Shown here piece by piece: positions 8,441-53,163 of a DNA stretch of 64,000 nucleotides (its first letter is position 1; the number at the start of each line of letters is the position of its first letter). Made by a program: the position numbers and the translations under genes. Under the pieces are notes generated by a model that searched no databases, was not told the DNA's origin, and worked only from the letters and a program-made list of their open reading frames with translations. This DNA is from Candidatus Parcubacteria bacterium (lineage in GTDB: Bacteria; Patescibacteriota; Microgenomatia; UBA12405), in contig JAEWUV010000001.1 of NCBI GenBank assembly GCA_023396915.1, forward strand, positions 21,206-85,205, written 5' to 3'.

Positions 8441-8445
8441 TAGAA

Positions 8446-9228: not shown

Positions 9229-9237
9229 AAGTAATAG

Positions 9238-9773: not shown

Positions 9774-9787
9774 AAGATAATTATACC

Positions 9788-9925
9788 TTAGGCACTAATC
9801 TTTTTTCGTCCCTTAGCCCTTCGTCTTTTCAAAACATTTCTGCCAGTAGCGCTTTTCATTCGCTTCAAAAATCCGTGAACCCGTGAATGTCTTTTACTTT
9901 TTGGTTGATATGTTCTTTTTGTCAT
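9788..9925 (-). CDS. rpmH: 50S ribosomal protein L34. Not in the ORF track because it is under 60 aa.
   Basis: Translation [45 protein letters not shown] is near-universal L34. Confidence 0.92.
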
Positions 9926-9954
9926 AAGTCGTATTTTAACATATAAAAAGTTAA

Positions 9955-10040
9955 TTATTATAAATTCGAAATCGTAATTTTTTGACGAATTTCAACACGC
10001 CAGTATTGACTGAGGCAAAAAATTCATGATAAGAATTTAT
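9955..10040. repeat. R1 repeat copy 5, 30-115 nt upstream of the rpmH start (minus strand).
   Basis: aaattcgaaatcgtaattttttgacgaatttcaacacgccagtattgactgaggcaaaaaattcatgataagaattt. Confidence 0.75.
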
Positions 10041-10051
10041 AAGTTTGCTTC

Positions 10052-10170
10052 AAATTATCCTCTTTCATTTTGTGGAAAACTCATTTATTATGATGTGGAT
10101 AACTCAAAAACAACTCCTCCGGTTGTTTGCAGTCCCGCTACTGCGGGATTATCCTTCCCCACACCACTGC
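10052..10170. promoter_or_regulatory. rpmH-dnaA intergenic region: DnaA boxes (TGTGGATAA at 10094-10102, TGTGGAAAA at 10071-10079, plus weaker ttatcctct/ttatccttc) and a palindromic hairpin TCCCGCtactGCGGGA (10133-10148).
   Basis: Direct read of 9-mers matching TTATCCACA or its reverse complement. The dnaA promoter and autoregulation region. Confidence 0.6.
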
Positions 10171-10213
10171 CTAATTTATTTTTTTAGTCATTAGAAGTTA
10201 GTTATTTTTATTT

Positions 10214-11554
10214 ATGGATTTAGATCGTCTTTGGAAAAATACTCAAGAAGAACTTAAAATTGTCATGGCTCCGGCTGTTTACCAAACATTTGTCAGTAAA
10301 ACCCAACTTATTAAATTAGAAAATAATCTTGCCATTCTAGCCTGTCCTAATTCCTATTTAGTAGATATCAACAAAAAACGCCATTATCAAACTTTTAAAC
10401 TAGCCCTAGATAACCAAACCAAAACAGATAATCATATTGAATTTACTATCCAGCAAACAGAAAAACAAAACACCTCAATAGACTCCTCTCCTTTATTTGA
10501 ATATTCTAAACAAAAAAACACTTTTCAGTCTGGTCTCCACCCAAAATACACTTTCGACACTCTTATTGTTGGTAATAGTAATAATTTTGCCTATGCTGCC
10601 GCCCAAGGTATTATCAAAAACCCCGGTCTGTCTTACAACCCTTTCTTTATTTGGGGTGGGGTAGGAGTCGGCAAAACCCATTTAATGCAAGCTATTGGTC
10701 ATGAGCTTTTAAAAAATAATCCTGATTATAAAATTTCTTATTTCCCCGCAGAAACTTTTGGTAATGAACTCATCGCCGCCCTTAAAAGCAAAACTATGAA
10801 CAAATTCAAAGATAAATACCGCAATCTTGATTGTATTTTAGTCGACGATATTCAATTCATTGCCGGAAAAGAATATATCCAAGAAGAGTTTTTCCACACT
10901 TTCAACAGTCTTCATATGAATGGCAAACAAGTAATTCTCACCTCTGACCGTAAACCCAGTGAAATTGACCACCTTGAAGACCGATTAGTTTCTCGTTTTA
11001 TGGGTGGATTAACCGTTGATATTCAACTTCCAGATTATGAAATGCGAACCGCTATTATTAACCAAAAAATAGAAGAAAAAGGCTTAAAAATTACCCCAGA
11101 AGCCGCTTCTTATTTAGCTAATAATATTGAATCAAATATTCGTGAAATTGACGGCAAATTACAACAAATAATTATTCAATCAATCGCCAATAAAACAGAA
11201 GAAATTGATATTAATTTTATTCACCAGTTTTATAGTCCCCAATCAAACTTTGGTTTTAATGACTCCAACCAAAACATTAACCCTCGTCATATTATTTCTG
11301 TTTGTGCCAAATTTTTTAATATTAAAACAGGGGATTTATGTGGTAAAAGCCGAAAAAAAGAACTTGTCCAAGCCCGTCATATTACCGCTTATCTTTTACT
11401 TAATGAAATTAATCTTCCACTTGAAGAGGTTGGTCGCCTTCTTGGGGGCCGTGACCACACCAGTATTATGCATGCCCGAGACAAAATCCACACTGACTTA
11501 TCCACTAATTCACAAATTAGCAAAGTTATTAACCAAATTAAATCTGCTTTTTAA
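10214..11554 (+). CDS. dnaA: Chromosomal replication initiator DnaA.
   Basis: AAA+ Walker A GGVGVGKTHLMQAIG and DnaA domain IV (ARHITAYLL...GGRDHTSIMHA). Confidence 0.95.
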   Translation: MDLDRLWKNTQEELKIVMAPAVYQTFVSKTQLIKLENNLAILACPNSYLVDINKKRHYQTFKLALDNQTKTDNHIEFTIQQTEKQNTSIDSSPLFEYSKQKNTFQSGLHPKYTFDTLIVGNSNNFAYAAAQGIIKNPGLSYNPFFIWGGVGVGKTHLMQAIGHELLKNNPDYKISYFPAETFGNELIAALKSKTMNKFKDKYRNLDCILVDDIQFIAGKEYIQEEFFHTFNSLHMNGKQVILTSDRKPSEIDHLEDRLVSRFMGGLTVDIQLPDYEMRTAIINQKIEEKGLKITPEAASYLANNIESNIREIDGKLQQIIIQSIANKTEEIDINFIHQFYSPQSNFGFNDSNQNINPRHIISVCAKFFNIKTGDLCGKSRKKELVQARHITAYLLLNEINLPLEEVGRLLGGRDHTSIMHARDKIHTDLSTNSQISKVINQIKSAF

Positions 11555-14721: not shown

Positions 14722-17007
14722 TTAAATTATTCCACTATCTAGTAAATCGTCAGGAGTAGGTTCGTTGCTGTTTGTTTTATTCTCAAACAAAGGCGTCGGT
14801 TTTTTTGCTAATTGTGGCGGTTGGGGAATATTGGTCTCTTCTGTTTTTACAAAAATCGGTTTTTGTTTTTGTTCTGGTTCTAGTACCTCCATTTTAGGTG
14901 GTACAAATCTGTCTTGTTTTTCTTGACTATCCAATCTAATCTCTCCTGATAAATTAGGCTTTTTAACCTCAGCTTTTTCTAACTCATCAATCTTTTTTTG
15001 AAGTATATCTTCTACTTCATTTTTTTGAACCTCTTTACTTTCCTCTGAACTTTCACTTTTTGGAGTTTCAGTCAGAGGCTGATTAACCACTGGCTGAGGA
15101 GCTGGAATTTCAGCTTTTGGTTGAGGAACTGGAGTCTCAGTCTTTGGCTGAGGAGTTGGAGTTTTTTCAAGTGTTTCCAATTTTCTTTTTCTCAAAACCT
15201 CTTCCGGGTCAGAAGTAATTAATTGATGTTCTTCCTCTGAAGCAATAACTTCTACTGCTACATGGTTCTGTCCAGCAAAAAAGAGACCTTGGCCTTTATC
15301 AGCGGTTAATAATAATTGTTTTTCTCCTTCACTTAAATAAAATACCTCACCCACCTGATCAATTGCCGCCGCGTGTTGTTTAAGTAAAATCTGAATCGAA
15401 CTATTAGTTACAATTTCTTTTCCGTAAGTACTCTTTAAAAAATCATTAACATCCTGAGTAATTGTAGTCACACCCAAATAATATTTTCTACCTCTTTTAA
15501 CTACCCCTCTTAAAAACTGAGCCGAATCTTCGTATTGCATCATATACCAAGCTTCATCTACCACTAAAATCCTTTTCTTTAATGTCTTTTTAACTATGGT
15601 CCAAATATAGTCCAAAATAATATGCATCGCTACTGGCCTCAAAGTTTCTTCTAGATTTTTTATCCCAAACACCACAAATTGATTGGTTAAATTAACTGTA
15701 GTTTTTTGATTAAAAATACCCGCAAACGACCCTTTAATATATTTTTCCATCCTAGCAGCTATCATTTGGGCTTTTTCTTCCTCTCTTCCTATTAAAGCTT
15801 TATAAACATCCTCAATCAAAGGTGGCTCTTTATTTTGGGTTTCTGGGTCTGGGGTTATCCCTTTTGCTTTATAAGCATCCATCAAAGCCTTATCTAAAAT
15901 AGACTCTTCCATTGGATCTAATGCCCCCAACATTACCTTCATTAATTTATGGACCGAAAGAGTTTTACTGTTCAAAGCATTCTCTCCTTCCTCTTCTACC
16001 AAAGACAAATCCATTGGGTTTATTTTCGACTCTTCATTGTAGCCAAAAGCAATATATTGCCCTCCGGCCGCATCGGCCAAGTCCTTATATTCGTTTTCAG
16101 GATCTATTACAATTACTTCTGTTCCAAACATCAAAGATCGCAATACTTCCAACTTAATCATATAAGACTTTCCTACGCCTGAGGTAGCAAAAACCACTGA
16201 GTTGTAGTTCGGCATGGAAAATCGGTCAAAAATTATTAACGATCCATTATGGGCATTAATCCCATACATTACTCCCTTATCGTCAGACAAATCAGAAGAT
16301 ACAAATGGAAAAGTTGTTGCCAACGAAGTGGTGTCCATATTTCTGGTTATTCCCAATCTGTCACTATTAGCCGGTAAACAAGTTATAAAACCATCTTCCA
16401 TCTGCAAAGTTGCTCTTTTACTCACTACCAACAAAGACCCTAATGCCGCCTCTAAATTTTTATTAATCCTATCCAAATCCTCTTTAGAATCTGCTGAAAT
16501 ATTTATATAAAGCCCAAACTGAAAAAACCTTTCTTCTCCTTTTACTAAATCTGCTTGTAAATTCAAAGCGTCTTCAAGCTTTGCTTGTGTTGCCGGATTT
16601 ACCAATCGACCACGTTGGATATCAGTACTTAATTCCGCCTCCATTTCTGTAATTTTGCGTCGTAAATCATCTAAAATCGCCTTGCCATCAGTTGGATAAA
16701 TATACATCGAGATATTCAGTGTCCAATCAAAATTAATCAAAGAAGACAGCCAATTCATCCCGACAAACCTTGGATAACCGGATACAAATAAGGTTCGAAA
16801 ATATTTATCACCAATTCTGACATGGTTAAAATCAACTTCCAAAGATGATGGGGCAATTATATCTTTAATCGAAACTAATCCATCGGAAAAATCTCTTTTT
16901 TTAGTATTATCAACAACTCCAGATTCCTCTGTTTTTTCCTTAGAATTACCCTTGTTTTCCACAGCCACAGTTTTTGGTTTTCTAATTATATTTTTCAATA
17001 AATCCAT
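14722..17007 (-). CDS. virB4: VirB4/TrsE/PrgJ-family type IV secretion ATPase (C-terminal 761-aa portion) with a P/Q/K/E-rich disordered tail.
   Basis: IAPSSLEVDFNHVRIGDKYFRTLFVSGYPRFVGMNWL is the CagE_TrbE_VirB N-region. Walker A is FATSGVGKS and Walker B is ILVVDEAWYMM. The tail has PTPQPKTETPVPQPKAEIPAPQP repeats. Confidence 0.85.
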   Translation of the reverse strand: MDLLKNIIRKPKTVAVENKGNSKEKTEESGVVDNTKKRDFSDGLVSIKDIIAPSSLEVDFNHVRIGDKYFRTLFVSGYPRFVGMNWLSSLINFDWTLNISMYIYPTDGKAILDDLRRKITEMEAELSTDIQRGRLVNPATQAKLEDALNLQADLVKGEERFFQFGLYINISADSKEDLDRINKNLEAALGSLLVVSKRATLQMEDGFITCLPANSDRLGITRNMDTTSLATTFPFVSSDLSDDKGVMYGINAHNGSLIIFDRFSMPNYNSVVFATSGVGKSYMIKLEVLRSLMFGTEVIVIDPENEYKDLADAAGGQYIAFGYNEESKINPMDLSLVEEEGENALNSKTLSVHKLMKVMLGALDPMEESILDKALMDAYKAKGITPDPETQNKEPPLIEDVYKALIGREEEKAQMIAARMEKYIKGSFAGIFNQKTTVNLTNQFVVFGIKNLEETLRPVAMHIILDYIWTIVKKTLKKRILVVDEAWYMMQYEDSAQFLRGVVKRGRKYYLGVTTITQDVNDFLKSTYGKEIVTNSSIQILLKQHAAAIDQVGEVFYLSEGEKQLLLTADKGQGLFFAGQNHVAVEVIASEEEHQLITSDPEEVLRKRKLETLEKTPTPQPKTETPVPQPKAEIPAPQPVVNQPLTETPKSESSEESKEVQKNEVEDILQKKIDELEKAEVKKPNLSGEIRLDSQEKQDRFVPPKMEVLEPEQKQKPIFVKTEETNIPQPPQLAKKPTPLFENKTNSNEPTPDDLLDSGII

Positions 17008-17009
17008 AG

Positions 17010-17708
17010 TTATTTGGTTGTGACCATTGGGCTGTAATAATTAACCTCTTTAAGTTTTTGGTTATCCGCTACTTCCGGGTTATATATTTTATAAAATAAT
17101 TCAGTTAACTCTTTGTTTTCCAAAAGTGAAACCTCCAAACCTAATCTCGAGAATAACCTTATCAAATGATCTTTTTTCGGTTCTAAACTCGCTTTCGCCT
17201 TTTCTAGAATATAACTTTTAGGATAAGGCAAACCAATATTTCTATCTTTTTTTATCAATCCTTTTAAACTTTGTTTACCCATACTCTTAATTCCCAATTC
17301 TGCCGAAGAAAACTTGACCACCACATAAAACGATTTAGATAAAACATCATTTCTTTTAACTATATCTTCGATAAACTTTCTATATTTTTTAATTCTCTCT
17401 TTCAACATTTTATTCTCCTGTTTTTCTTCCGCTTCATTCAACCTTTTCATATAAGACCCAATGTCTTTAGTGTCAGATTTAATTATTATTTGAACAGGAA
17501 AGTTTAAAGAATTTAAAATTCCACCGTAAGCCATTATCAACGCCGATTGTTCCCTCTCTGACAATAAATCAAAATTTACCGAAGAAACTCTTAATATTGA
17601 AACCGCTGAACCGTCTTTCAAAATAACTACATCCTCAATAATATCCTCAATCGGCAAATGCTCTTGAGTTGTACCTTTAATAGCTATTTTAAGAGGATCG
17701 TTTGGCAT
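17010..17708 (-). CDS. VirB4-family N-terminal domain fragment (232 aa). Probably the 5' part of the same virB4 gene, separated by a frameshift.
   Basis: LPIEDIIEDVVILKDGSAVSILRVSSVNFDLLSEREQSALIMAYGGILNSLNFPVQIII resembles the extreme N-terminus of Gram-positive VirB4 (PrgJ/TcpF-like). Its stop (17010-17012) lies 2 nt from the next ATG, which is in a different frame. Confidence 0.55.
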   Translation of the reverse strand: MPNDPLKIAIKGTTQEHLPIEDIIEDVVILKDGSAVSILRVSSVNFDLLSEREQSALIMAYGGILNSLNFPVQIIIKSDTKDIGSYMKRLNEAEEKQENKMLKERIKKYRKFIEDIVKRNDVLSKSFYVVVKFSSAELGIKSMGKQSLKGLIKKDRNIGLPYPKSYILEKAKASLEPKKDHLIRLFSRLGLEVSLLENKELTELFYKIYNPEVADNQKLKEVNYYSPMVTTK

Positions 17709-17722
17709 ATATTAATAATAAA

Positions 17723-18661
17723 CTAATTGTGAGCTATTATTCTAACTGGGTCAACAATTTCACCTTTCAAATCAATATTAACTCTATCAAAACCATAACC
17801 TTCCTTTTCGGCAATCAATAGATACCTTCCATTAGCCAGTGGAGTCGATATTTTAAACTGACCCAAAGCATTAGTTTTGATAACCCTAGTTGGATTCCCA
17901 TGCATGTCTTGAATTTCTATAATTACTCCATCAACTATCTTCCCTTCACTATCTGTCGCCATCCCTACAATTACATTGGAAATATCTGGTCTATTCGGCA
18001 TTGGAATACTGCCAAAAACTGCCTTTCCTGTGGCTTCCAATTTTTCTTTCTTTAAATTTAAATCAACTGTTTTCCTCTCTTGAATATTAATTTCCTCTAT
18101 TTTTTCTTCCGGTATCACTTCTGTTACTTTTCTGATTTCATCAGAAACAGGTTCAATTACTCTTTCTTTAACACTGTTTTGTTTTGGCTTTATTTCAATT
18201 GCCTCATTTTTTTTATTTTTAGCGATTTTAATTTTAAAATTACTCCCAACATTAGAAGTATTTGTTTGATCTATCTTTTTCTTAAAAACAATATCAGCGT
18301 TTTTATTTTCGTACAATTGAGCCGTTTCTTCCTCTTTTTTTTGAGGGCTACTTAATTCCAACCAGTCTTCATTTTTCTTCTTGTAAGTATATATTGTCGG
18401 AGCATAAATCGACTTTAGAAAAGCTATAGCCCATGTTTCCAAGGGCCTATCTTCAAAAGGAATAAAAGCCAACGCTAATCCTAAACCGCCGGTAGCAAAC
18501 ATTAACGGCCACTTAAATATCGCCAATAATTTCGTTTTATATATTAATATCGCAATTATTATGCCTCCGGCAGCTTTTGCAAACTGCTTTAACGTCATAT
18601 CTCCTACCAATTTAAATTCATAGGATGATATTTGTTGTGGAATCGGGTGTTGCATTTCCAT
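17723..18661 (-). CDS. PrgI-family (VirB3-like) T4SS membrane protein fused to a C-terminal carboxypeptidase-regulatory-like (CarboxypepD_reg) beta-sandwich domain.
   Basis: N-terminus QISSYEFKLVGDMTLKQFAKAAGGIIIAILIY...FIPFEDRPLETWAIAFLKSIYAPTIYTYKK matches PrgI family (PF12666) features. C-terminus GKIVDGVIIEIQDMHGNPTRVIKTNALGQFKISTPLANGRYLLIAEKEGYG matches the carboxypeptidase regulatory-like domain. Confidence 0.6.
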   Translation of the reverse strand: MEMQHPIPQQISSYEFKLVGDMTLKQFAKAAGGIIIAILIYKTKLLAIFKWPLMFATGGLGLALAFIPFEDRPLETWAIAFLKSIYAPTIYTYKKKNEDWLELSSPQKKEEETAQLYENKNADIVFKKKIDQTNTSNVGSNFKIKIAKNKKNEAIEIKPKQNSVKERVIEPVSDEIRKVTEVIPEEKIEEINIQERKTVDLNLKKEKLEATGKAVFGSIPMPNRPDISNVIVGMATDSEGKIVDGVIIEIQDMHGNPTRVIKTNALGQFKISTPLANGRYLLIAEKEGYGFDRVNIDLKGEIVDPVRIIAHN

Positions 18662-18670
18662 TACTAAATT

Positions 18671-19285
18671 CTACCGTAAAATCTCCGCCAGTTTCCAGTT
18701 TGATTTTTCATAATCACCTGGGTTATACCAATATGTTTGCCAACCCATTTGTTTAGGTATTTCTAAATTTTCCTGTTTATTATCTATGAACAAGATTTCA
18801 CTACTTTCAACCTCGGCTCTTTTTTGGGCAATTTCATAAATTTTTCTATCCGGCTTTCTGCATTTCTCTATTGACGAATCCGCAATCACATCCCAATTCA
18901 TGTTTGGAATCAATCCTTTTTCTTTAATCAAATTCAACATCCCTTCATACATATTTGTTAACAAACCCACTTTATATTTATTTTTAACACTATTTACTAT
19001 TTGCCAAATTCCTTCGTTTCTAACAAAAAAATTATTTACCATATCATCACCAATGGAATAATTATTCGGCAAATTAATCCCAAATCTATCTCTCATTATT
19101 AAGGGAAAATCTCTCAATTTTTTACCTTTTTCTAAATCTTTTTCAAAAATATCAAAAAAATCATCAAATTTTTGTTGTTGAGAATCCTTTAACCCTAGTT
19201 TTTTTAATAATACTTTCCAACCATTATCATCGTCACTCAAATCTTTTATCAATACCCCGCCAACATCAAAATAAACAAATTTCAT
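18671..19285 (-). CDS. HAD-superfamily hydrolase.
   Basis: FDVGGVL (DxG motif I), LLTN, KPD, FIDN motifs. Confidence 0.65.
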   Translation of the reverse strand: MKFVYFDVGGVLIKDLSDDDNGWKVLLKKLGLKDSQQQKFDDFFDIFEKDLEKGKKLRDFPLIMRDRFGINLPNNYSIGDDMVNNFFVRNEGIWQIVNSVKNKYKVGLLTNMYEGMLNLIKEKGLIPNMNWDVIADSSIEKCRKPDRKIYEIAQKRAEVESSEILFIDNKQENLEIPKQMGWQTYWYNPGDYEKSNWKLAEILR

Positions 19286-19313
19286 ATTTAATTCTACCTT
19301 AATCTATTTTTTA

Positions 19314-19365
19314 AGCCCTCCCTTTTTCAAGGGAGGGTGCCCGATAGGGCGGGTGGGTTTAATTC
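19314..19365. repeat. Composite GC-hairpin element, copy D (agCCCTCCCtttttcaaGGGAGGGtgCCCGatagggCGGGtgggtttaattc), immediately upstream of the 5'-3' exonuclease start.
   Basis: Shares hairpin-1 architecture and the gggtgggtttaatt tail with copy C at 25641. Confidence 0.65.
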
Positions 19366-19379
19366 TGCTAAACTACATC

Positions 19380-20270
19380 ATGTCTAAATTATTGATTATT
19401 GACGGTCATGCTGTTATTCATCGGGCTTACCATTCCATTCCTAACCTTACTGTCAATGGCCAACCAGTCAACGCTCTTTATGGGTTTTATTCCATGTTAC
19501 TTTCGGCCATTTCTCAAATTAACCCCAAATATTTAATTGTTTGCCTTGACTCTCCTGGTCCAACCTTTCGTCAATCAGAATTTGTTGGCTATCGGGCCAA
19601 ACGCAAAGCTCCAGACAGGGAATTAATTTCTCAACTTCCTCTTTTAGCCACCACTCTTGAACAATCTAATATCAAAACTTTTGCCATAGGTGGGTACGAA
19701 GCAGATGATCTTATTGGCACCATCGCTCGTAAGGCCTCAAAAAAGAAGTTTATCAGTGAAACTATAATTATCACTGGCGACAAGGATTTGATGCAATTAG
19801 TCGACTCTAAAACCCATTTACTTATGCCTCTTCGTGGTCTTTCAGAGACTAAATTATTTAAATCTCCAGATGTTGTCGAAAAATTAGGAGTAAAACCAGA
19901 CCAAGTCGTCGACCTTAAAGCTTTAATGGGGGACATGTCTGACTGCTATCCTGGCGTTGCCGGTATTGGTCCAAAAGCCGCGACAAATCTTTTATCTGAA
20001 TATCAAAATTTAGACAATATCTACTCTCACCTAGAAGAAATTAAACCAAGCATCAAAGAAAAATTAGCCAAAGAAAAAGACAATGCCTATCTTTCCCAAA
20101 AATTAGCCACTATTATTGACAACATCCCTCTTGATTTCAAATTCTCAGAAAGCAAATGGAGCCCGGAAATTATCTGTAGTCTCAAAAATATGTTTAAAAG
20201 TTATAATTTTAAATCTCTCATTTCTCGTCTCGACCAAGACACCAAACCCCAACAATCTTCTTTATTTTAA
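19380..20270 (+). CDS. 5'-3' exonuclease / FEN (Pol I N-terminal-like). The real start is likely the ATG at 19380 (MSKLLIIDGHAV...) rather than the track start at 19353.
   Basis: LLIIDGHAVIHRAYHS N-terminus and acidic metal-binding residues. The upstream in-frame codons lie within the hairpin element. Confidence 0.85.
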   Translation: MSKLLIIDGHAVIHRAYHSIPNLTVNGQPVNALYGFYSMLLSAISQINPKYLIVCLDSPGPTFRQSEFVGYRAKRKAPDRELISQLPLLATTLEQSNIKTFAIGGYEADDLIGTIARKASKKKFISETIIITGDKDLMQLVDSKTHLLMPLRGLSETKLFKSPDVVEKLGVKPDQVVDLKALMGDMSDCYPGVAGIGPKAATNLLSEYQNLDNIYSHLEEIKPSIKEKLAKEKDNAYLSQKLATIIDNIPLDFKFSESKWSPEIICSLKNMFKSYNFKSLISRLDQDTKPQQSSLF

Positions 20271-44581: not shown

Positions 44582-44625
44582 TTCCCCTCCTTTCCTCAAA
44601 GGAGGGGAATAAGTGGTAGATTTTG
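44582..44625. repeat. GC-hairpin element copy G (CCCCTCCtttcctcaaaGGAGGGGaataagtggtagatttt). Likely a terminator for the upstream + gene.
   Basis: 7-bp GC stem with a U-rich loop, followed by a T-rich tract. Confidence 0.55.
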
Positions 44626-44675: not shown

Positions 44676-44969
44676 CTAATTTTTATTTTTCCCCGCCCAC
44701 AAATTCAACCCACCAATCACCATCGCCGGCATATAAATTACCCACGCTTCCAAACTCATCACCATAAAAGCTATTTCCAAAACCAGCCACAAAATCCCTC
44801 CCAAAACCTCTTTCTTCCACGAAATTATTGTCACTATTATCAATACAAAACTCGGTATCAAATGCATCATCAACGCCACCAACCATTGTTCTTCTCCAAC
44901 CACATCCACCACAAACAAACTAATAAACAAAATAAAAACTATCGATAATATCCTAGTTATTTTCTTCAT
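44676..44969 (-). CDS. Small membrane protein (97 aa, 3 TM). Last gene of the island operon.
   Basis: Hydrophobic helices. Overlaps the fic stop region. Confidence 0.4.
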
Positions 44970-45819
44970 AATAATAAGAATAATCTATTCCTTTCATAAA
45001 TATTTCCCGACTATTAATTTTATTAGTTAAAGCCTTTTTTAATAATTTTTTTATTTCACTATTATCTTTCGGGCTTTGTATCATCGCTTTTAGATAATCA
45101 TTTTTGCCTATTTTGCTCCAGTCAACGCATTTTTTTAGCTGTTTTTTAAAAATCAAATCCAACCAGATCCGGGTAGTTCTACCGTTACCTTCCATAAATG
45201 GATGAGCCAGATTCATCTCCACATATTTATCGGTAATTTGGTTAAAAGTATCTTGAGGCATTTGCTCAATCTGTTTTAGAGTATTGTCTAAAAATTGAGC
45301 CATGGCAAATTGAAACCCGCCTTTTGATATATTTTTTTGCCTGATTTGCCCGGCAAAATTATATAATCCACCAAACAAATAAGCATGGATCTGTTGCAAA
45401 CCTTTAATTGTACCGATTTCTATTTCATCTATTAAATTACTTTCAAACAAAGCATAAGCTTTTTTCTTGCTTTGCCCATCAATAGTATTGTCACTATAAG
45501 TAAACCAATCAAGAAACGACATAGATTTTTTACTCGGAATTGCTTTTACCACCTCAACAATGTCATCTTGTGAAAAACAATCAGTAGCGTATTTTTTCCC
45601 ATCTGATGCGACTAATTTCAGTTGCCTACATTTTGTAGTCAACTGATTTCCTTCTTTTTTTAATCGTGTTTTCAACACACTCCAATATTTTCGTGGATTC
45701 GCACTTTCCGTCAAAGCAGCCACGATATCAAGAACTGAAAACCACCACTTATTTTTCTCTTCATCCCAAACCGCCCGCACTTCTTTATCATCAAAAAACC
45801 GAATTGATATTTTATCCAT
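44953..45819 (-). CDS. Fic/DOC-family protein with an N-terminal BRO-N/DinD-like domain.
   Basis: Fic motif [12 protein letters not shown] (HPFx[DE]GNGR). N-terminus [34 protein letters not shown] resembles BRO-N/RhuM-N. Confidence 0.8.
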
Positions 45820-45845
45820 AATTATTCTTTAACCTATCTTAACAT

Positions 45846-46607
45846 TTATTTAATCTTTTCAACTGCCTTCACATAATTGCAGTAATCACAATCAGCACTA
45901 GATTCAGGAATTTCTTTGCTATTCAAACACTTATAAATATCCTTAATCGTTTGCTCAATCCAATCAGTCTTGCCAGTATAAGGTAGTAATTTAATATCAA
46001 ATTCCAATTTTCCATCAAAAGCCACTCTATCAGTTTTCCCGTTACAATAGACAAAATAGCCAGTATCCGACACCTCAAAACCATTTTTTCTAAATAGCCA
46101 CTGATACACTTCCATCTGTCTTTTGTATCCATCTTGCCATTCCGCATCCAAGTTTACTTCACTTTCTTTTGATGTCGATTTGTAATCTACAATTATCAAT
46201 TCATTTTTTGAATTAATCCAAACATCATCGACTGCTCCAGTAATTAACAAATTAGTTTCTGGATCCAAATAGGTAATTCCTTTAAAATTTTCTCGCCATT
46301 CATCCATTTTTGGATGTTCAAAAGGTACTGCATCCAATCCATAAGCTTTCATCAATGGGTGAGTTGTATGTTTATTTCTATGAATATCAAATTCTTTTTT
46401 AAGCAGCTTATCAACCGCTGAATTTAATGAAAAGGGGAATCCTGGTGGTTGGGCAATTCCAAGCACTCGATCCAAATAAAAACACCTTGGACATTTTATA
46501 AACAAATCAATCTTCGACCGACTTATCTTAAACGCTTGTCGGCCTGTGGCCGAGTTTTTTCCTTCATACAATCCCAGTTGTCTGTTTGGCTTATAGTATT
46601 GCGACAT
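45846..46607 (-). CDS. PD-(D/E)xK nuclease with a 4-Cys (Fe-S) cluster, Cas4/AddB-nuclease-like.
   Basis: N-terminal CPRCFYL, core IIVDYKS (D...(D/E)xK), C-terminal CDYCNY. This is the Cas4-type Cx(n)CxxC arrangement. Confidence 0.65.
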   Translation of the reverse strand: MSQYYKPNRQLGLYEGKNSATGRQAFKISRSKIDLFIKCPRCFYLDRVLGIAQPPGFPFSLNSAVDKLLKKEFDIHRNKHTTHPLMKAYGLDAVPFEHPKMDEWRENFKGITYLDPETNLLITGAVDDVWINSKNELIIVDYKSTSKESEVNLDAEWQDGYKRQMEVYQWLFRKNGFEVSDTGYFVYCNGKTDRVAFDGKLEFDIKLLPYTGKTDWIEQTIKDIYKCLNSKEIPESSADCDYCNYVKAVEKIK

Positions 46608-46662
46608 AAGCTATTTTACTCTAAGAACAAATCGTATCAAAAAATAGTTGTTAAAGATTACT

Positions 46663-47541
46663 CTAAGCAATCCTAAAAATTGCAGTATCCGAAGGCTGGA
46701 ACTCACTGTGTTTAATGTATTTCTTTAATGAAAAAAAATCTTCATTATTTGATGACAATATTTTTGGTGTAATTGTACCTTCTTTGATATGTACATCAAT
46801 ATTTTTATCTTTGCAAAATTTTATTACGTAATTTACCATAGAATTATAAAACTCTTTGACACCAACTTGATTAGAAATCATACTATTATAATTCCATCTA
46901 CCAAACACAATTTTATCCACAAATGAAATCGACTCCAAGATAGTCTTAATGTCTTGCTTTACTATATTTGATGTTGGATATGGTTCCATACTAACCCATG
47001 TTTTTAACCCAGATTTATGTAGCTCTTTTAGAGACTCTATTCTCTTTTTAATCGGAGCAGCTCCAGGTTCAAATTTCTTCCTATATTCTTCTGATAACGA
47101 AACTATTGTTGAACCATATTCGTTTAAAGAATTATATTTACTAGCGTTAATTAATTCTTTTGGATATATCCCTTTTGTTATTATTGTTGACCTTATACCA
47201 TAAGTATTTAATTTTTCTAGTATTTTCAACGTCAATTTAATAACTTCTAGTTGTTTATACATAAATGGATCAGATGAAAAACACAAAAACACACAGTGGA
47301 TTTTATTTTTTAGTCTTGGAAGTTCTTTATCCAATAATTCCATTGCATTTCCAACAATTTTTGGGGATATCCACTCATTATAACTTTTAACGACTCCACA
47401 TCTTTTTTTCATCATGTATGCATAACAGGGAAATTTACATCCATGAGAACAACCTTCGATATGATTCAATCCATAATCCGCATATTCGACATTACTTTTG
47501 TATAGAAGTGATTTACGATTTATTTTAGGTAAACTTTTCAC
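46663..47541 (-). CDS. Three-Cys-motif (CSHGCKFPC = Cx3Cx3C) radical-SAM-like protein.
   Basis: GCSHGCKFPCYAY near the N-terminus. Paired with the RlmJ/TcmP-like gene 21 nt upstream. Confidence 0.45.
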   Translation of the reverse strand: MKSLPKINRKSLLYKSNVEYADYGLNHIEGCSHGCKFPCYAYMMKKRCGVVKSYNEWISPKIVGNAMELLDKELPRLKNKIHCVFLCFSSDPFMYKQLEVIKLTLKILEKLNTYGIRSTIITKGIYPKELINASKYNSLNEYGSTIVSLSEEYRKKFEPGAAPIKKRIESLKELHKSGLKTWVSMEPYPTSNIVKQDIKTILESISFVDKIVFGRWNYNSMISNQVGVKEFYNSMVNYVIKFCKDKNIDVHIKEGTITPKILSSNNEDFFSLKKYIKHSEFQPSDTAIFRIA

Positions 47542-47562
47542 TTATTTAGTTTAGCAGTATTT

Positions 47563-48486
47563 TTACTTTGGAGTATAGTCTTCTTTATCAAACATATACA
47601 TTTGTCCTGTGTATGTGGATTTATCTTTATTTTTAAATATATGGTCTATTATTTTTTTTGCACTTGGACATCTTGATGCAAATAAAAGAAAATAGGAGGT
47701 TTCATTTTTATTCGGTCTTAACATTTGGTATACAGATAATTGATTTAATTTTGAATCAGCAAATATTTCTTTAATAATCATCAACATTAAATCTTTGTCT
47801 TTTTTACTAAAACTATCAGTTAATGATTCAATCTCATGAAGCGATTTTACAGAATTTAATAGTTTTTCTATTTTTTCTTTATTTCCATTGTTACTAATTA
47901 ATTTCTTTACATAAGCCAAAACTCTCGATGTTCCACAAATATAGTTTAATATCAAATCATTAGGGCTTTTCTCTCCACGGCTTACTATTTGTTTTATTGT
48001 TTCTTTCTTTATTTCTTTTGGTCCCCACGGATCAATAAAAAATAAAACTGGTCTATATTTTATTTTTTCAATAATATTTCCAATTTCTATATTAATATCA
48101 CCCAGTATAAGATCAATATTAACAAATTTTCTGTAAGGTTCACAAAAATTCTCCAATTCTTTAACTGATTTTTTATTTTTTTCAACAAAAATACAATTCA
48201 GCTTTACAGTTCCAGAGTGTTTCAAATAAAGAGATTTTGCATATTCTAAGGCAATTAATGGAGATCCATTTATCGAATCCATTATTCCATTATTGTGATA
48301 CATTCCTCTCCCAGCATAACAGTCTATATAATAAGCAGTTTTTGCCCATTGTTTTTGATGATTTAGATATTGAGCAAAAATAATAGTAGCCCATTTATTA
48401 AGATATTCTTTTAAAATTTCCAATTTTCTTTTAGTATGGGGTCTATTTGTTATATCCCAATAATTACTTTTATTCATAAAACACAA
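47563..48486 (-). CDS. RlmJ-like / TcmP-like protein (putative N6-adenine methyltransferase fold; 'three-Cys-motif partner protein').
   Basis: YIDCYAGRGMY, GSPLIALEYAK and LFFIDPWGPKE parallel RlmJ motifs (YLDTHAGAGRY, GSPLIA, LIDPPYE). Its start is 1 nt after the upstream RM-like gene stop. Confidence 0.5.
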   Translation of the reverse strand: MCFMNKSNYWDITNRPHTKRKLEILKEYLNKWATIIFAQYLNHQKQWAKTAYYIDCYAGRGMYHNNGIMDSINGSPLIALEYAKSLYLKHSGTVKLNCIFVEKNKKSVKELENFCEPYRKFVNIDLILGDINIEIGNIIEKIKYRPVLFFIDPWGPKEIKKETIKQIVSRGEKSPNDLILNYICGTSRVLAYVKKLISNNGNKEKIEKLLNSVKSLHEIESLTDSFSKKDKDLMLMIIKEIFADSKLNQLSVYQMLRPNKNETSYFLLFASRCPSAKKIIDHIFKNKDKSTYTGQMYMFDKEDYTPK

Positions 48487-48487
48487 T

Positions 48488-51400
48488 CTATTTTACATTT
48501 TCTTCTGTAATTTTAATTTCTTCCTCAATTTTTAAATATACTTTATCAATTCTAATTTGAATTTCTTTTGTTAATTTTAATACTGTCACCACCCTACAAT
48601 AATGTCGAATATCTTCATCTGATAAAGTTTTTTCCACCCTATCTTTAAGCCACTTATCTAATACTTGATATCCGCCAATATAATAATTCCAAATCTCAGG
48701 AGTAACATCATCAAAATATTGAGAATCATTTATATAAACACGATTGTTTTCTAGATCGTATTTTCTTTTGTTAACTTTTCCTTCTCCCTGACCAAAAAAT
48801 CTTGTAGAAGGGTTATCTAATTCTGATGAATTTAATAAATGTAGATTTATTAAATCTTCACCTAAAGAAGATAGTAATTGAAAAGTTTCTAAGTTTTCTG
48901 TAAAAGGAATCCTAGGAAAATCTATTTTTAAAAATTCTTTGTATTTCTCTCGATAGATATTTGAATAAAGAATCGCATAAATATAATAAAAAATTGCCTC
49001 ATTTGTTTGAATAAAATTACCTGATATTTTTGATGCGAATGATGGAACTTGTTGGATAAAATTTGGTAACTTTGACCAGTTGTAATTTGACGACCTAATT
49101 TTTGATTCCGACAACTCTTGTTGAGAACTGTAAATATAAAGTGGAAATGTATATGCCGAATCTTGAGCATTATCTAAATAATGAAAATCGGTTATGGTAT
49201 TTGTTATACCAAAATAATTTAAACTTAACTGACGGTTTCTTTTAGCAGATATTAATATCAAATTGTTCCGCATAAAAATATGTTTTGTAACTTCATTGCG
49301 TACTCTCCATATAGCAGATGGATGATTGAATATCCAACGATTATCAAATGGTCTATAACTGTAGTTTGAATAATATTTATTAATATTCTCAAGATTTTTT
49401 AATTTCAATTTTGTTTCAGGAATTCGTTCAGAATAAATCTTACTTAATTTAAAAGTATTTTTAATAAATTCATCATCACCAACACTGTTTATAAAACTAT
49501 TAATTTTTGTTTCGAGTTTATGTTTATCAAAATCAATCACAAAGTTATCATTCGCGGTTAGAATACCAGTACTATAAATATTAAAAATATCCGTTAAAGG
49601 TATAAACTTTTGGTATTTTTCATTACCTTCTTCATTTCTTGGAACTAAGAAATAATAAGGTTTAGATGGAATTAATTTTTGCCATTTTGTTGTTGTAATA
49701 TCATTTGATTCAAGCCATTTATATTTATCTTCACGTAAACCCCATTGATCACAATAGAATATTTGTTTAGTTTTAACAGGTGTCTTACATAATAAAACAA
49801 TAGATACTCCAGTTTGAATATCAAAAACATTTTCGTCTTTTTTACCTTCAGGTGTCTTTTCCTTTTTAAGGATACTACCGTGTAAATTAACAACATATAT
49901 TTCATTAAAAGTATTTAACATGGAATATCTCATACCACGGAAAGTTGGATTATCAAGCCAAGCATGATTAGTAATAAATCCTAAAATTCCCTGTTTATTT
50001 TGTTCAATCTTCCATTGAGAAAATCTGAAAAATTTTACATAATCATCTTGCAACCAATCTTTTTTTTCATTTAATTTTTCTCCCTCAATCTGGCGATATT
50101 CATTAATTTCCCCCAGTATCCAATCTCCTTTATTTGTAGAAACAGCTGAATAGGGTGGATTACCCATAATAACCATTACCTTTTTATTTTTTTTAACATC
50201 ATTAGCTTGACGAGATTCTTCTGATAAATCAGAAAATAATGGAAGATCCATGTGTGGAAGATTATTCAAATCAAGCGTATTAGTTAAAAAAAGATTAAAT
50301 CGTTCATACTGCCCTAATTTATATTTGTGTTCATCAAAAATCAAAGATGCTTTAATGTGTCCTAAAACATAAGGTGACATCATTAATTCAAAAGCAAAAA
50401 AATGAGGGATAATATGATTTTTTATCAAATTATTAATTCCTCCATCACCATATCTGTTTTTATATTCATCTATGGCTACTTTAATTGCTTCAATCGGAAA
50501 GGTTAATGTACCAGCAGCAGGATCAAGTAAAGTTACTGAATTACTAGCTAATCCATCCGGTCTTTTAAATTTTTTTTGAAGAATTTTATGAACTGAATTT
50601 ACTATATATTTAACTACTGGCTCCGGTGTGTAATATACTCCTCTTTTTGCCCTCTCTTTTGGATCATACTCAGCAAGAAAAGTTTCATAAAAATGGATAA
50701 TAGGATCATTACCCTTACCATTTAAATAATAATTATCAACAATCTTTGTAACATCCGTGTTTTTAAGTAATTCGGCAATATCGTCAATAATCCATTCCAT
50801 ATTTTTAGGTAAATCGTTAGATGAAATGAAACGAAATATGCTTCTTAAAACTCCAATTGTAGATGGAATAGTTTTAAAAGCATTTAAACGATTAAAATCT
50901 GATGATGATCGAAGACGAGCTGCGAATAAACCAAAAGTAATGGTTTGAGAAAACAAATTTGCAAAATCATCAAGATTTAAAGAGGATATTAAATATTCTT
51001 TGAACAGTTTATAAATTCCCTCAAGTGTTTGAGTTCCAGTTTGTGTTTCCTCTTTTAACTCCTCAATAATGCAGTTTTCTTTAAGAAAACTAGTTCTTTT
51101 AGCAAGTTCTATTGCTAAAGTTTTAGCTGTATTGATTTTTGGAGTAGAAAAAGAGAAAAATTCAGCTAATAACTTTTGGAGATATAACTCATTTTCTACC
51201 GGCGGAACAATCCCAAGCTGATTAAGGATAACAGGACGACCTATCATTACTTTATCTATTTGTTCTCCGTTGCGGTAAAGTCTAAATTCGAGAAAATTTG
51301 TCAAAATCAAATTAGGGAAAGTTTTAAGGTATCTTTGTAGTTGTTCTGTTTGTTCTATAGCGTCGAGGTTTTCAATATTTGGTTCTTTTGCTTCTATATA

Positions 51401-51607
51401 ACCAATAAGTTGATATTTCTGAGTTTGAATTCTGAAATCAGGATTTCCTGCTTCAGTTTTTTTAGGCAAAATAGTTACACTAATTTCTTTTTTATTTTGG
51501 ATTGCATAAGCCTCAATTAATTTTTTCAGATCTGGGTAATAACTTTCTTCACGAACATCTCCAGCGTTAGTAGTCGCAGACAAATCAGATAAATATTCTT
51601 TAAACAT
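48488..51607 (-). CDS. MmeI-like type IIL/IIG restriction-modification enzyme: N-terminal PD-ExK nuclease, gamma-class N6-adenine methyltransferase, C-terminal target-recognition region.
   Basis: NPDFRIQ...GYIEAKEP (PD...ExK), MTase motif I LLDPAAGTLTF, motif IV MGNPPYS. 1039 aa. Very AT-rich codon usage. Confidence 0.75.
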   Translation of the reverse strand: MFKEYLSDLSATTNAGDVREESYYPDLKKLIEAYAIQNKKEISVTILPKKTEAGNPDFRIQTQKYQLIGYIEAKEPNIENLDAIEQTEQLQRYLKTFPNLILTNFLEFRLYRNGEQIDKVMIGRPVILNQLGIVPPVENELYLQKLLAEFFSFSTPKINTAKTLAIELAKRTSFLKENCIIEELKEETQTGTQTLEGIYKLFKEYLISSLNLDDFANLFSQTITFGLFAARLRSSSDFNRLNAFKTIPSTIGVLRSIFRFISSNDLPKNMEWIIDDIAELLKNTDVTKIVDNYYLNGKGNDPIIHFYETFLAEYDPKERAKRGVYYTPEPVVKYIVNSVHKILQKKFKRPDGLASNSVTLLDPAAGTLTFPIEAIKVAIDEYKNRYGDGGINNLIKNHIIPHFFAFELMMSPYVLGHIKASLIFDEHKYKLGQYERFNLFLTNTLDLNNLPHMDLPLFSDLSEESRQANDVKKNKKVMVIMGNPPYSAVSTNKGDWILGEINEYRQIEGEKLNEKKDWLQDDYVKFFRFSQWKIEQNKQGILGFITNHAWLDNPTFRGMRYSMLNTFNEIYVVNLHGSILKKEKTPEGKKDENVFDIQTGVSIVLLCKTPVKTKQIFYCDQWGLREDKYKWLESNDITTTKWQKLIPSKPYYFLVPRNEEGNEKYQKFIPLTDIFNIYSTGILTANDNFVIDFDKHKLETKINSFINSVGDDEFIKNTFKLSKIYSERIPETKLKLKNLENINKYYSNYSYRPFDNRWIFNHPSAIWRVRNEVTKHIFMRNNLILISAKRNRQLSLNYFGITNTITDFHYLDNAQDSAYTFPLYIYSSQQELSESKIRSSNYNWSKLPNFIQQVPSFASKISGNFIQTNEAIFYYIYAILYSNIYREKYKEFLKIDFPRIPFTENLETFQLLSSLGEDLINLHLLNSSELDNPSTRFFGQGEGKVNKRKYDLENNRVYINDSQYFDDVTPEIWNYYIGGYQVLDKWLKDRVEKTLSDEDIRHYCRVVTVLKLTKEIQIRIDKVYLKIEEEIKITEENVK

Positions 51608-51656
51608 ATCCCTATTTTACCTCAAACCTCATCTTTTCTCGCGCTATACTTTACCT

Positions 51657-52178
51657 ATGGAATATTTAATTATCATTGTTTTAATGGTTGTACTTTTTAA
51701 GATTTTTTATAAACGCATTTTTATACAAGATGAATCAGAAAGTCATAATAAAAAATTTTCAAATTCATCCAAAATCACTCCAGGCAATTTTCGACTTCGT
51801 CCATCACTTTTAAATAGTAATGAACGAGTCTTTTTTGAACAACTCAAATTAGCAGTAGGGAATCAATACGATATCTATCCTCAAACTTCTTTAAGTGCTA
51901 TTTTTGAACCAATTGAACATTGGAATAACTGGGGTGATCTAAGTCGTTTGAACAAAAGAATTGATTTTGTTTTGTTTGACAAAAATACTCAAACTCCAAA
52001 GATTGCTATCGAGCTAGACGGTGACTCCCATTCTAAGTTTAAAAGTATTAAACGTGATGAATTTGTTGGCGATCTTTTTGAAAAATTTAATATTCCTTTA
52101 GTCCGCTTTAATAATGGCAATTATTCTGCCGAAGAGATTAAAAACAAACTTTCTATTTTTCAATTACTTTCTTTTTAA
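51657..52178 (+). CDS. DUF559/Vsr-like PD-(D/E)xK endonuclease-domain protein with an N-terminal TM helix.
   Basis: RIDFVLFDKNTQTPKIAIELDGDSHS...KRDEF...NIPLVRF is the DUF559/DUF2726 signature. Convergent with, and overlapping, the RhuM gene's 3' end. Confidence 0.55.
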   Translation: MEYLIIIVLMVVLFKIFYKRIFIQDESESHNKKFSNSSKITPGNFRLRPSLLNSNERVFFEQLKLAVGNQYDIYPQTSLSAIFEPIEHWNNWGDLSRLNKRIDFVLFDKNTQTPKIAIELDGDSHSKFKSIKRDEFVGDLFEKFNIPLVRFNNGNYSAEEIKNKLSIFQLLSF

Positions 52179-53163
52179 CTTTTTTCTCTACTGCTTTGAT
52201 ACTTTCCAAATAATCTTCTTCCACCGGTGACAGAGTTTTTATTTGATATTTTTTATATTCTGCCAAGGCTTTTACTTCAGCTTCAATTTTGCTGATTTTA
52301 CCGGCATTTTGTAATACAGTTCTGTCCATTGAAACCACCAACTTATCCAATTGATTTATATAATCTTCCATAGTTGTCTGTATTCCGTCAATTGCCCTCA
52401 ATTCGGCGATGTCAAAATAAGCCGATACTATATTATTTAATTTTTTAAGTTCCTGTTCGGTCAAATAATTTTTAGCCACAGTTATATCGGATTTTCTGAC
52501 TCCGTCTTTTGAAAAAGTCATCAATCCCATAAATGGTTTATCTGCATCAGCCCGTTCAGAAATTAATTCAGATGCTGTTTTTCCGTTGGCAGCATAATGA
52601 AGTTTATTTTGTACTATGGCAAAAAACTTTTTCGATTCCTGACTTTGTGGATTGTAATCAATACTGGTGGCATACAAATCTAATACTTGTCTGTACAAAA
52701 CCTTTTCACTACTACGAATATCCCGAATTCTATCCAAAAGCTCTTTCCAATAATTTCCACCACCATTATTTTTTAGTCGCTCATCATCCAAAGTAAAACC
52801 TTTAACAATATACTCGCGAAGTCGTGCCGTTGCCCATTGGCGAAAACGAGTCCCTTCTATTGAACTAACCCTATACCCAACAGAAATGATAACGTCCAAA
52901 TTGTAATGTTTTACGACATATTCTTTACCATCAGATCCAGTCCGTCGGAATTCCCGACATACTGAATTTTCTTCCAATTCTCCTTCATTAAAAATATTTA
53001 AAATGTGTTCAGTAATAGTAGATCGACCTTTATTAAACAGTTCAGCAAGCTGATCCTGATTAAGCCATACTGTTTCACTCTCTATTCGTACCTCAATTTT
53101 CGGCTGACCGCCGTCTCCTTGATAAATAATTATTTGGTTATCCGGTTGTTTATTTTTATCCAT
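52153..53163 (-). CDS. RhuM-family (DinD-like) protein.
   Basis: KIEVRIESETVWLNQDQLAELFNKGRSTITEHILNIFNEGEL...YNLDVIISVGYRV...FRQWATARLREYIVKGF matches RhuM-family hallmarks. Confidence 0.8.
   Translation of the reverse strand: MDKNKQPDNQIIIYQGDGGQPKIEVRIESETVWLNQDQLAELFNKGRSTITEHILNIFNEGELEENSVCREFRRTGSDGKEYVVKHYNLDVIISVGYRVSSIEGTRFRQWATARLREYIVKGFTLDDERLKNNGGGNYWKELLDRIRDIRSSEKVLYRQVLDLYATSIDYNPQSQESKKFFAIVQNKLHYAANGKTASELISERADADKPFMGLMTFSKDGVRKSDITVAKNYLTEQELKKLNNIVSAYFDIAELRAIDGIQTTMEDYINQLDKLVVSMDRTVLQNAGKISKIEAEVKALAEYKKYQIKTLSPVEEDYLESIKAVEKKVKKKVIEK

Follow-up and report, generated by a model that had tools for sequence, protein, structure and literature searches.

A TcmP and Radical-SAM Gene Pair Linked to a Type IIG Restriction Gene in a Mosaic Defence Island of a Candidatus Parcubacteria Bacterium

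Introduction

Does a run of tightly spaced, defence-like genes in a bacterial genome encode one machine or several? The question is raised by positions 44676-53163 of a 64-kb stretch of DNA from a Candidatus Parcubacteria bacterium (contig JAEWUV010000001.1), the whole of which is called the window here. A preliminary description, made from the sequence, had recognised in this region a defence-type island in which six minus-strand genes form one operon, and had proposed that a restriction enzyme, a DNA base-modification module and a Cas4-like nuclease act together in a combination without a name. The present analysis supports the defence-type island, and since PADLOC gave piecewise matches only, no named system accounts for the whole combination. 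However, the 8.5-kb block is, as far as sequence comparison can tell, a mosaic defence island and not a single six-gene machine. Its core appears to be a three-gene operon, imported together, that encodes a Type IIG restriction-modification enzyme, a methyltransferase-like protein of the TcmP family and a radical S-adenosylmethionine (SAM) protein.

TcmP (TIGR04474) is a catalogued family defined by its adjacency to three-Cys-motif DUF5131 (PF07505) proteins. In the literature that was searched, we found no functional study of, or experiment on, the pair, TcmP or DUF5131. Two papers contain passages with an incidental mention: one places TcmP beside the Hna defence gene in Sinorhizobium (PMC12445080), and the other places DUF5131 beside spore photoproduct lyase (SPL) in a radical-SAM megacluster (PMC9477430).

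Results

Linkage and Evolution of the TcmP and Radical-SAM Pair

Profile searches with PADLOC, Pfam and NCBIfam were run on the island proteins, and the neighbourhoods of radical-SAM homologues were compared in 80 loci from species-representative genomes and 61 loci from IMG/VR viral contigs, which together gave 137 non-redundant loci. The genome loci span groups of the Candidate Phyla Radiation (CPR), Omnitrophota, Nitrospirota, Actinomycetota, DPANN and other archaea. We found that TcmP lies directly upstream of the radical-SAM gene, in the same direction and with a median gap of 18 nt, in 116 of the 137 loci, and that most of the remaining loci without an upstream TcmP are truncated by a contig end. 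A TcmP homologue also preceded on the same strand in all six radical-SAM contexts that were inspected singly. At least three fusions of the two genes into a single protein exist (588 aa at L089:13450-15216 on the minus strand, 634 aa in P0258 and 592 aa in P0262), and across the 137 loci only the TcmP and radical-SAM pair is constant. Two small genes separate the fusion in L089 from an upstream Type IIG gene (16970-20050, minus strand), whose product of 1026 aa is 44% identical to that of the window, and the same contig additionally carries an unfused pair at 8861-10837 on the plus strand.

The TcmP of the window scored 138.1 bits against TIGR04474 (cut-off 53), with its residues 16-287 covering model positions 1-262 of 263, and it was matched by the PADLOC models PDC-M30A and PDC-M41A. 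The match to PDC-M41 was full-length for component A (55 bits) and weak for component B, which fell on residues 15-113 of the radical-SAM protein (25 bits). In 109 TcmP sequences K21, Y28, D55, G59, G61, D152, P153 and R188 are near-invariant; the recognisable motifs are a SAM-binding D55-x3-G59-x-G61 and a motif-IV-like D-P-[F/Y/W]-[G/A]. The fold is nearest to that of RlmJ, and the long forms of the family end in a C-terminal winged-helix domain (GMT-wHTH).

The radical-SAM protein exceeded the gathering score of Pfam PF04055 (49.9 bits) and has a partial TIM-barrel radical-SAM fold. The motif CX3CX3C, without CX3CX2C, is present in 133 of the 137 members and reads C31-x3-C35-x3-C39 in the window; C243 is a further near-invariant cysteine of the family. 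Against DUF5131 (PF07505) the protein, which adjoins TcmP with a 21-nt gap, scored 22.9 bits, under the cut-off of 28.9. Its fold is nearest to that of SPL; membership of the SPL family at the sequence level was rejected, as the profile matched SPL of the Protein Data Bank (PDB) with an E-value of 0.84. The nearest NCBIfam models, PA0069 and Rv2578c, gave scores far under their cut-offs, and a viral-locus member of this radical-SAM family matched no PADLOC model. Among the candidates scored there were 5969 homologues, the best 120 of which show 57-93% identity and are spread over widely different phyla; clustering at 50% gave 208 clusters at E<1e-30 and 1393 at E<1e-10. The long homologues contain no informative extra domains besides the TcmP fusions. 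In P0297, P0304, P0347 and P0360 the radical-SAM profile matched in several separated pieces, as if the proteins were interrupted by insertions, possibly inteins.

The two partners evolve very differently. The median pairwise identity is 58% for the radical-SAM protein versus 20% for TcmP, with a Spearman correlation of 0.16 between them, and radical-SAM proteins that are more than 80% identical were combined with TcmP proteins that are less than 40% identical in 55 of 114 locus pairs. Between the window and locus L008, for example, the identity is 88% for the radical-SAM protein, 90% for the Cas4-like nuclease and about 30% for TcmP by BLAST (24% in the multiple alignment), and the IIG enzyme belongs to a different family. 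The TcmP nearest to that of the window (49%, locus L036) is accompanied by a radical-SAM protein that is only 56% identical. The TcmP and radical-SAM phylogenies are incongruent over the 108 loci with both genes, which implies that partners have been swapped. A hypervariable TcmP joined to a conserved radical-SAM protein looks like the pattern typical of conflict systems, and the linkage data suggest that TcmP and the CX3CX3C radical-SAM protein are an obligate, mobile two-protein unit. Among cultured phages and plasmids the only matches were two faecal 'Bacteriophage sp.' fragments without annotation and one distant gene on a haloarchaeal plasmid; the pair has been overlooked because of this near-absence. 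A search of PHROGs returned unknown-function families only.

The Pair in Restriction Operons

The gene preceding the pair in the window encodes a single-chain enzyme that matched Type_ISP_C (244 bits, 2.3e-72) and N6_Mtase in Pfam and REase_MTase_IIG in PADLOC (834 bits). It has an N-terminal nuclease motif, PD(57)...E72-A-K74, a gamma-class N6-adenine methyltransferase domain with motif I DPAAGT and motif IV NPPY, and a Type ISP-like specificity domain at the C-terminus. Its sequence matches in the PDB were LlaBIII (6e-39), DrdV (7lo5, 3e-38) and LlaGI (1e-32), and no MmeI-specific Pfam domain was matched. The nuclease, DPAAGT and NPPY motifs align with those of other TcmP-linked IIG enzymes, most of which retain all three and are complete in this respect. 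By its motifs, the window enzyme is predicted to be a complete single-polypeptide nuclease, methyltransferase and specificity enzyme.

A Type IIG gene lies directly upstream of the pair in seven loci. These enzymes belong to at least two unrelated families, and the junction between IIG and TcmP ranges from -41 to +42 nt. All three closest relatives of the window radical-SAM protein (88, 72 and 67% identity) have the order IIG-TcmP-radical-SAM, with junctions of -29 to +2 nt, and these three genes are all that the window shares with them. Neighbour clustering separated a Type_ISP_C type from a TaqI_C/Eco57I type, and the two intermingle in three or more regions of the radical-SAM tree; L008, in contrast, has a separate PLD-SNF2 helicase upstream. 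The linkage expected among relatives by the preliminary description was therefore seen for IIG, TcmP and radical-SAM, and the remaining genes of the run were separate. When the two genes upstream of the pair were surveyed in the genome loci, the commonest Pfam families were Eco57I (9), N6_Mtase (9), Peptidase_S24 (6) and ResIII (6); no family dominated downstream in these loci.

Type III systems take the other side of the pair. In 11 loci the next gene downstream is a Type III Mod gene, at a distance of 9 nt from the radical-SAM gene in eight of them, and it is followed by Res and by an AbiU/AIPR protein or GmrSD. On viral contigs a cassette recurs in which a divergent 644-aa M78/IrrE-domain protein is followed by a Cro/C1 helix-turn-helix (HTH) protein, TcmP, radical-SAM, Mod and Res, and in which TcmP is often present as two paralogues, one PDC-M30A-like of about 379 aa and one PDC-M41A-like of about 289 aa. 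Restriction-family hidden Markov models matched 51 of the 137 pair loci versus one of 80 MacB-anchored control loci, an enrichment that is overstated because the models were built from TcmP loci and the control has a different taxonomic mix.

These operons bear on the possibility that the pair works autonomously, as a two-gene system of defence or counter-defence of the PDC-M30/PDC-M41 class that clusters with restriction genes in islands without biochemical coupling. Such a system would fit the TcmP models that PADLOC lists as candidate defence components, the combination of a hypervariable TcmP with a conserved radical-SAM protein, which suits a sensor/effector design, and the prophage-like or island contexts beside GmrSD and AbiU. 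However, the junctions with both IIG and Mod genes are tight or overlapping, Type IIG is always upstream and Type III always downstream, and the restriction partner is swapped between close radical-SAM relatives with the architecture kept. These three features suggest operon integration rather than loose clustering, and we regard full autonomy as unlikely, if worth keeping in mind.

Other Genes, Composition and Boundaries of the Island

The island comprises eight open reading frames (ORFs), namely the six on the minus strand and two flanking genes. An ORF check reproduced the coordinates of the preliminary description exactly, including gaps of 1, 21, 55 and 26 nt and a final 17-nt overlap; with the ATG start of TcmP in the source record, the gap between IIG and TcmP is 10 nt rather than 1. 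Its domain assignments for the six genes and for RhuM were essentially right by the profile searches, with the qualification that the Cas4-like protein stays under Cas4 cut-offs, whereas the convergent gene that it took for a Vsr/DUF559-like endonuclease belongs to DUF2726. DUF2726 is divergent from the IIG gene with a 49-nt spacer, and its 3' end overlaps that of the convergent RhuM gene by 26 nt (52153-52178). The features are collected in Table 1.

Table 1. Coordinates of the island features in the window and of selected features in other pair loci (handles beginning with L).
Feature	Coordinates	Strand	Evidence
Type IIG/IIL restriction-modification enzyme, single-chain, 1039 aa	48488..51607	-	Pfam, PADLOC, PDB sequence matches, motifs
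TcmP, RlmJ-like protein of the short form with a SAM-dependent methyltransferase fold; 307 aa (TTG start) or 304 aa (ATG at 48477, as in the source record)	47563..48486	-	TIGR04474
Non-canonical radical-SAM enzyme, 292 aa, C31-x3-C35-x3-C39	46663..47541	-	Radical_SAM 49.9 bits
Cas4/RecB-like PD-(D/E)xK nuclease, stand-alone, 253 aa	45846..46607	-	PDDEXK_1
BRO-N + class III NmFic-like Fic AMP-transferase	44953..45819	-	Pfam Fic, Bro-N; NmFic model
DUF7670 small membrane protein, 97 aa	44676..44969	-	Pfam 61.5 bits, residues 4-90
DUF2726 protein, restriction-endonuclease-like fold, N-terminal hydrophobic segment	51657..52178	+	Pfam 80.2 bits
RhuM-family protein, 336 aa, single-gene defence candidate	52153..53163	-	Pfam 349 bits, PADLOC
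12-bp GC-rich hairpin, likely bidirectional terminator	44582..44609	.	Terminator scan, inverted-repeat search
Promoter-like site TTGATA-16-TAAAAT, 10/12	46613..46640	-	Within the 55-nt gap between the radical-SAM and Cas4-like genes
Viral-contig cassette, example	L136:5658-17549; similar in L099, L103, L115, L123, L131, L141		
LexA (LexA_DNA_bind + Peptidase_S24) or other S24 protein upstream of TcmP	L047:176-865, L059:177-854, L014:517-1176, L060:8279-8854	same as TcmP	

The Cas4-like protein matched PDDEXK_1 (53.7 bits) and has the motifs D..DYK and QxxxY and cysteines arranged 2+2 (C39, C42, C240, C243). An assignment to Cas4 proper was rejected, as TIGR00372 gave 33.3 bits versus a cut-off of 65 and Pfam Cas_Cas4 gave 20.6 versus 22.7; the island ORFs include no cas gene, and a search of the 64-kb window revealed no CRISPR-like repeat array. 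The family is very large and highly conserved, with at least 8000 matches, the best 120 of which are 66-88% identical. Homologues at 70-87% identity were found in three other contexts (with an EcoRI-type methylase and a GmrSD/HNH protein, in a Dnd-associated/DarT island, and among housekeeping genes), all without TcmP or radical-SAM, and on these contexts the nuclease was rejected as a component of the pair system. Downstream of the pair in L056 (1567-5063), a Cas4-like nuclease occurs together with an ABC-type ATPase of 483 aa, a BRO-N fragment and another radical-SAM protein, of 331 aa, that is unrelated to the first.

The BRO-N/Fic protein exceeded the cut-off of the NmFic equivalog NF046029 (272.6 versus 230 bits), matched PADLOC PDC-S04 (503 bits) and NmFic in the PDB (229 bits), and contains the 12-residue Fic active-site motif HxFx(D/E)GNGRxxR. 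The RhuM protein matched PF13310 (Virulence_RhuM) and, over its full length, PADLOC PDC-S05 (494 bits); RhuM genes occur near the pair in L064, L078 and L044 in a different gene order. PADLOC lists PDC-S04 and PDC-S05 as two distinct candidates, each made up of one gene. Neither DUF7670 nor DUF2726 recurs in the other pair loci of the 137-locus set. For DUF7670 the source record has a 67-aa ORF (44683-44886) instead, and the extent of the Pfam match supports the longer 97-aa ORF. Judged by these contexts, the Cas4-like, BRO-N/Fic, DUF7670, DUF2726 and RhuM genes appear to be independent single-gene residents of the same hotspot.

Base composition separates imported from native genes within the block. 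With the 53 other genes of the window as the reference, only four genes are AT-rich: radical-SAM (z-score of GC content -1.9), TcmP (-3.0), IIG (-2.1; -2.9 at third codon positions) and DUF2726 (-2.0). The Cas4-like (0.0), BRO-N/Fic (-0.6) and RhuM (0.0) genes have ordinary values. Because only four genes deviate, the AT-rich block is an insert between resident genes and not the whole island, which confines to those four genes the AT-richness that had been attributed to the entire block. The GC profile in 1-kb steps agrees, as the dip that had been expected is present at 47-51 kb (0.26-0.29 versus about 0.34 elsewhere) and does not extend across the whole block. DUF2726 and RhuM overlap at their 3' ends, yet only DUF2726 has the AT-richness of the imported block.

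The proposal of one operon acting as one system has to be weighed against this mosaic. If all six minus-strand genes formed a co-functional system, one would expect their tight spacing on one strand and the absence of a strong internal terminator, which a terminator scan of the run confirmed, and a few loci repeat parts of the arrangement: the Cas4-like gene follows radical-SAM in L008 (10 nt, 90% identical) and occurs about 3 kb downstream in L056 (57%), and BRO-N/Fic genes come directly after radical-SAM in L054 and L078. On the other side, these two loci are the only ones of 136 other pair loci with the Cas4-like gene, Fic or RhuM occur in a handful with varying order, DUF7670 is linked nowhere else, Cas4-like homologues occur without the pair, and GC content sets radical-SAM, TcmP, IIG and DUF2726 apart from the Cas4-like, Fic and RhuM genes. 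We therefore consider a six-gene system highly improbable, and of the coupling proposed in the preliminary description we keep the part that joins IIG to TcmP and radical-SAM and drop the Cas4-like nuclease. From the promoter-like site in the 55-nt gap, the Cas4-like, Fic and DUF7670 genes may be transcribed separately, although the site counts for little, because such sites in the region do not exceed shuffled expectation.

The flanks were checked with precomputed Pfam matches on the 906,714-bp metagenomic source scaffold, and the core genes that had been named as neighbours were found there: MFP, ABC, MacB, HisKA and response-regulator genes on one side and DUF2177, EamA, VIT1, DUF1003, CoaD and CoaE on the other. 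The size of this scaffold, its AT-rich composition and the CPR origin of the nearest homologues are in keeping with a member of the Patescibacteria. The GC-rich hairpin sits between a convergent DUF5666-like gene and the DUF7670 gene. Relatives of MacB (52-75% identity, on metagenome contigs) retain the order MFP-ABC-MacB-DUF5666 up to the hairpin and then diverge, which sets the left island boundary at the hairpin, the island being absent from these relatives. Up to 10 kb downstream in these relatives we found neither the island genes nor the right-flank genes of the window, and a clean empty site was not recovered among them, as synteny is too eroded. As for the signatures of an integrative element, no tRNA gene was found within the 64-kb window, no integrase domain among the island ORFs by Pfam, and no flanking direct repeats beyond chance-like AT-rich matches.

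Elsewhere in the window, GC skew ranges from -0.28 to -0.55 per kb over positions 1-9000, across a minus-strand gene run that includes a 987-aa ORF (1655-4618), and the cumulative GC skew is negative over the whole window. A 27-nt tandem repeat (2.7 copies, score 95, 15091-15162) lies inside a 761-aa minus-strand ORF (14722-17007).

Discussion

The folds, the winged-helix extension, the fusions, the integration in restriction operons and the contrast between a conserved and a hypervariable partner together argue for a conflict-related, DNA-directed function of the TcmP and radical-SAM pair that is often coupled to restriction. Gene order, folds, motifs, linkage, fusions and the unequal rates of evolution are observed; that DNA is the substrate, what the chemistry would be and that the pair works together with restriction are what we infer from them. 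The idea of a DNA base-modification module, raised in the preliminary description, is plausible as a hypothesis. To the fuller proposal, that the pair modifies a base or reverses a modification and is coupled to SAM-dependent, N6-adenine-methylating restriction enzymes, we give an about even chance of being correct.

In this proposal, the pair would assist adenine-methylating, SAM-dependent restriction enzymes by acting on DNA. TcmP, which evolves fast, would select the target and would bind or methylate a flipped base; the conserved radical-SAM protein would contribute radical chemistry by which a base modification is installed, extended or reversed. SPL works on flipped-out bases in double-stranded DNA. 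A more specific hypothesis, which we put forward tentatively and consider rather doubtful as it stands, is that the pair is a restriction accessory carrying out radical chemistry on DNA, with TcmP as an exchangeable target-recognition subunit; it might add to the adenine that the linked Type IIG or III enzyme methylates, or close to it, a further mark other than a methyl group, or it might attack foreign DNA by hydrogen abstraction. If true, this would be a previously undescribed DNA-modification or restriction chemistry across CPR, DPANN archaea, Omnitrophota, Nitrospirota and gut prophages. The pair is built into restriction operons of many uncultivated lineages, which points to a layer of DNA marking, repair or attack not recognised so far; in the catalogues the pair figures simply as 'TcmP' and 'radical SAM protein'. 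Its design of a conserved engine with a hypervariable partner offers a clear experimental handle and could yield new DNA-modifying chemistry.

Several points weigh against restriction-coupled base modification. About 60% of the pair loci have no restriction-type gene within reach, so that the pair is evidently able to work alone, as an autonomous system would, and the enrichment of restriction genes is inflated by the way in which it was obtained, as described above. A Type IIG enzyme would already protect its own sites, which leaves it unclear why a second modification should be needed. The recurrence of the Cas4-like gene in L008 and L056 makes a loose link of this nuclease to the pair possible.

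Other points of this kind concern DNA repair. LexA or S24 repressors lie directly upstream of the pair in 5-7 loci, which suggests that in some lineages the pair may respond to DNA damage, and Y-family polymerase genes lie downstream in two loci. In 15-18 loci a Cro/C1 HTH gene precedes the pair, accompanied by a divergent gene for an M78/IrrE-domain protein. One possible explanation is that the pair serves DNA-damage repair or the alleviation of restriction, with an SPL-like lyase that is recruited by TcmP, induced by damage and limits self-damage. This would agree with the closest fold of the radical-SAM protein, that of the DNA-repair enzyme SPL, and with its nearest NCBIfam models, which some sources label 'DNA repair photolyase'. 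However, the radical-SAM protein hardly resembles SPL in sequence, mobile elements and restriction operons are commonly controlled by HTH and S24 regulators too, the distribution of the pair is sporadic and island- or prophage-borne rather than core, and a partner at 20% median identity with frequent swapping is unexpected for a repair enzyme. We consider a repair function improbable.

A last point is that RlmJ, the nearest fold to TcmP, acts on rRNA, so that an RNA substrate is conceivable. The pair would then modify rRNA or tRNA like this 23S rRNA m6A methyltransferase, with no role in DNA or defence, and its position among housekeeping genes in some loci (L007) could be understood in the same way. 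We think this very hard to uphold in view of the patchy occurrence over bacteria, archaea and viral contigs, the integration of the pair in restriction operons, the winged-helix domain on long TcmP forms, the extreme variability of TcmP and the best fold match of the radical-SAM protein, which is a DNA enzyme. On this balance, we prefer the hypothesis that the pair acts on DNA as an accessory of restriction enzymes.

Comparison with Known Systems

The window IIG enzyme has the same chain of nuclease, N6-adenine methyltransferase and specificity domain as Type IIL/IIG and Type ISP enzymes (DrdV and the MmeI class; LlaBIII and LlaGI). Type ISP enzymes have a helicase, which the window enzyme lacks, and, unlike characterised Type IIL/IIG enzymes, it is operon-coupled to TcmP and a radical-SAM protein. 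To our knowledge, the characterised enzymes of the DrdV, MmeI, LlaBIII and LlaGI class act alone, and we know of no departure from the view that SAM-dependent restriction enzymes methylating one strand (IIG/IIL, III) work alone. BREX, DISARM and MADS were considered and rejected for the island, as PADLOC gave a weak mad2 match (48 bits) on the IIG methyltransferase domain and no PglZ/BrxC, DrmA/B or other mad components.

An accessory gene embedded in a restriction locus is known from prr, where the anticodon nuclease PrrC accompanies EcoprrI; RhuM and Fic genes, too, repeatedly accompany restriction loci and are found inside Type I loci. The window likewise has a restriction-modification system with extra genes in or beside its operon, and its BRO-N/Fic protein differs from NmFic by the added N-terminal BRO-N domain. 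In prr-type loci the accessory is a toxin-like single gene, whereas here the candidate accessory is a two-enzyme SAM/radical-SAM unit. In these terms, the IIG-TcmP-radical-SAM operon is best described from its sequence as a restriction-modification system that carries an uncharacterised accessory pair.

RlmJ, the 23S rRNA m6A2030 methyltransferase (PDB 6qe5, 2oo3), is 15-17% identical to TcmP, with no match at the sequence level. Motif IV of RlmJ is DPPY; TcmP differs by its D-P-[FYW]-[GA] form of this motif and by its hypervariability, mobility and radical-SAM pairing. SplB (PDB 4fhc) is 15% identical to the window radical-SAM protein and has CX3CX2C in place of CX3CX3C; it is tied to sporulation, whereas the radical-SAM family described here is island- or prophage-borne and has an obligate methyltransferase-like partner. 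A further parallel is the TcmP/DUF5131 pair, in that the TcmP of the window likewise adjoins a three-cysteine, radical-SAM-related partner. In comparison with that pair, and with PDC-M41 and PDC-M30, the partner here is instead a distinct, highly conserved family with the CX3CX3C motif that scores with Radical_SAM.

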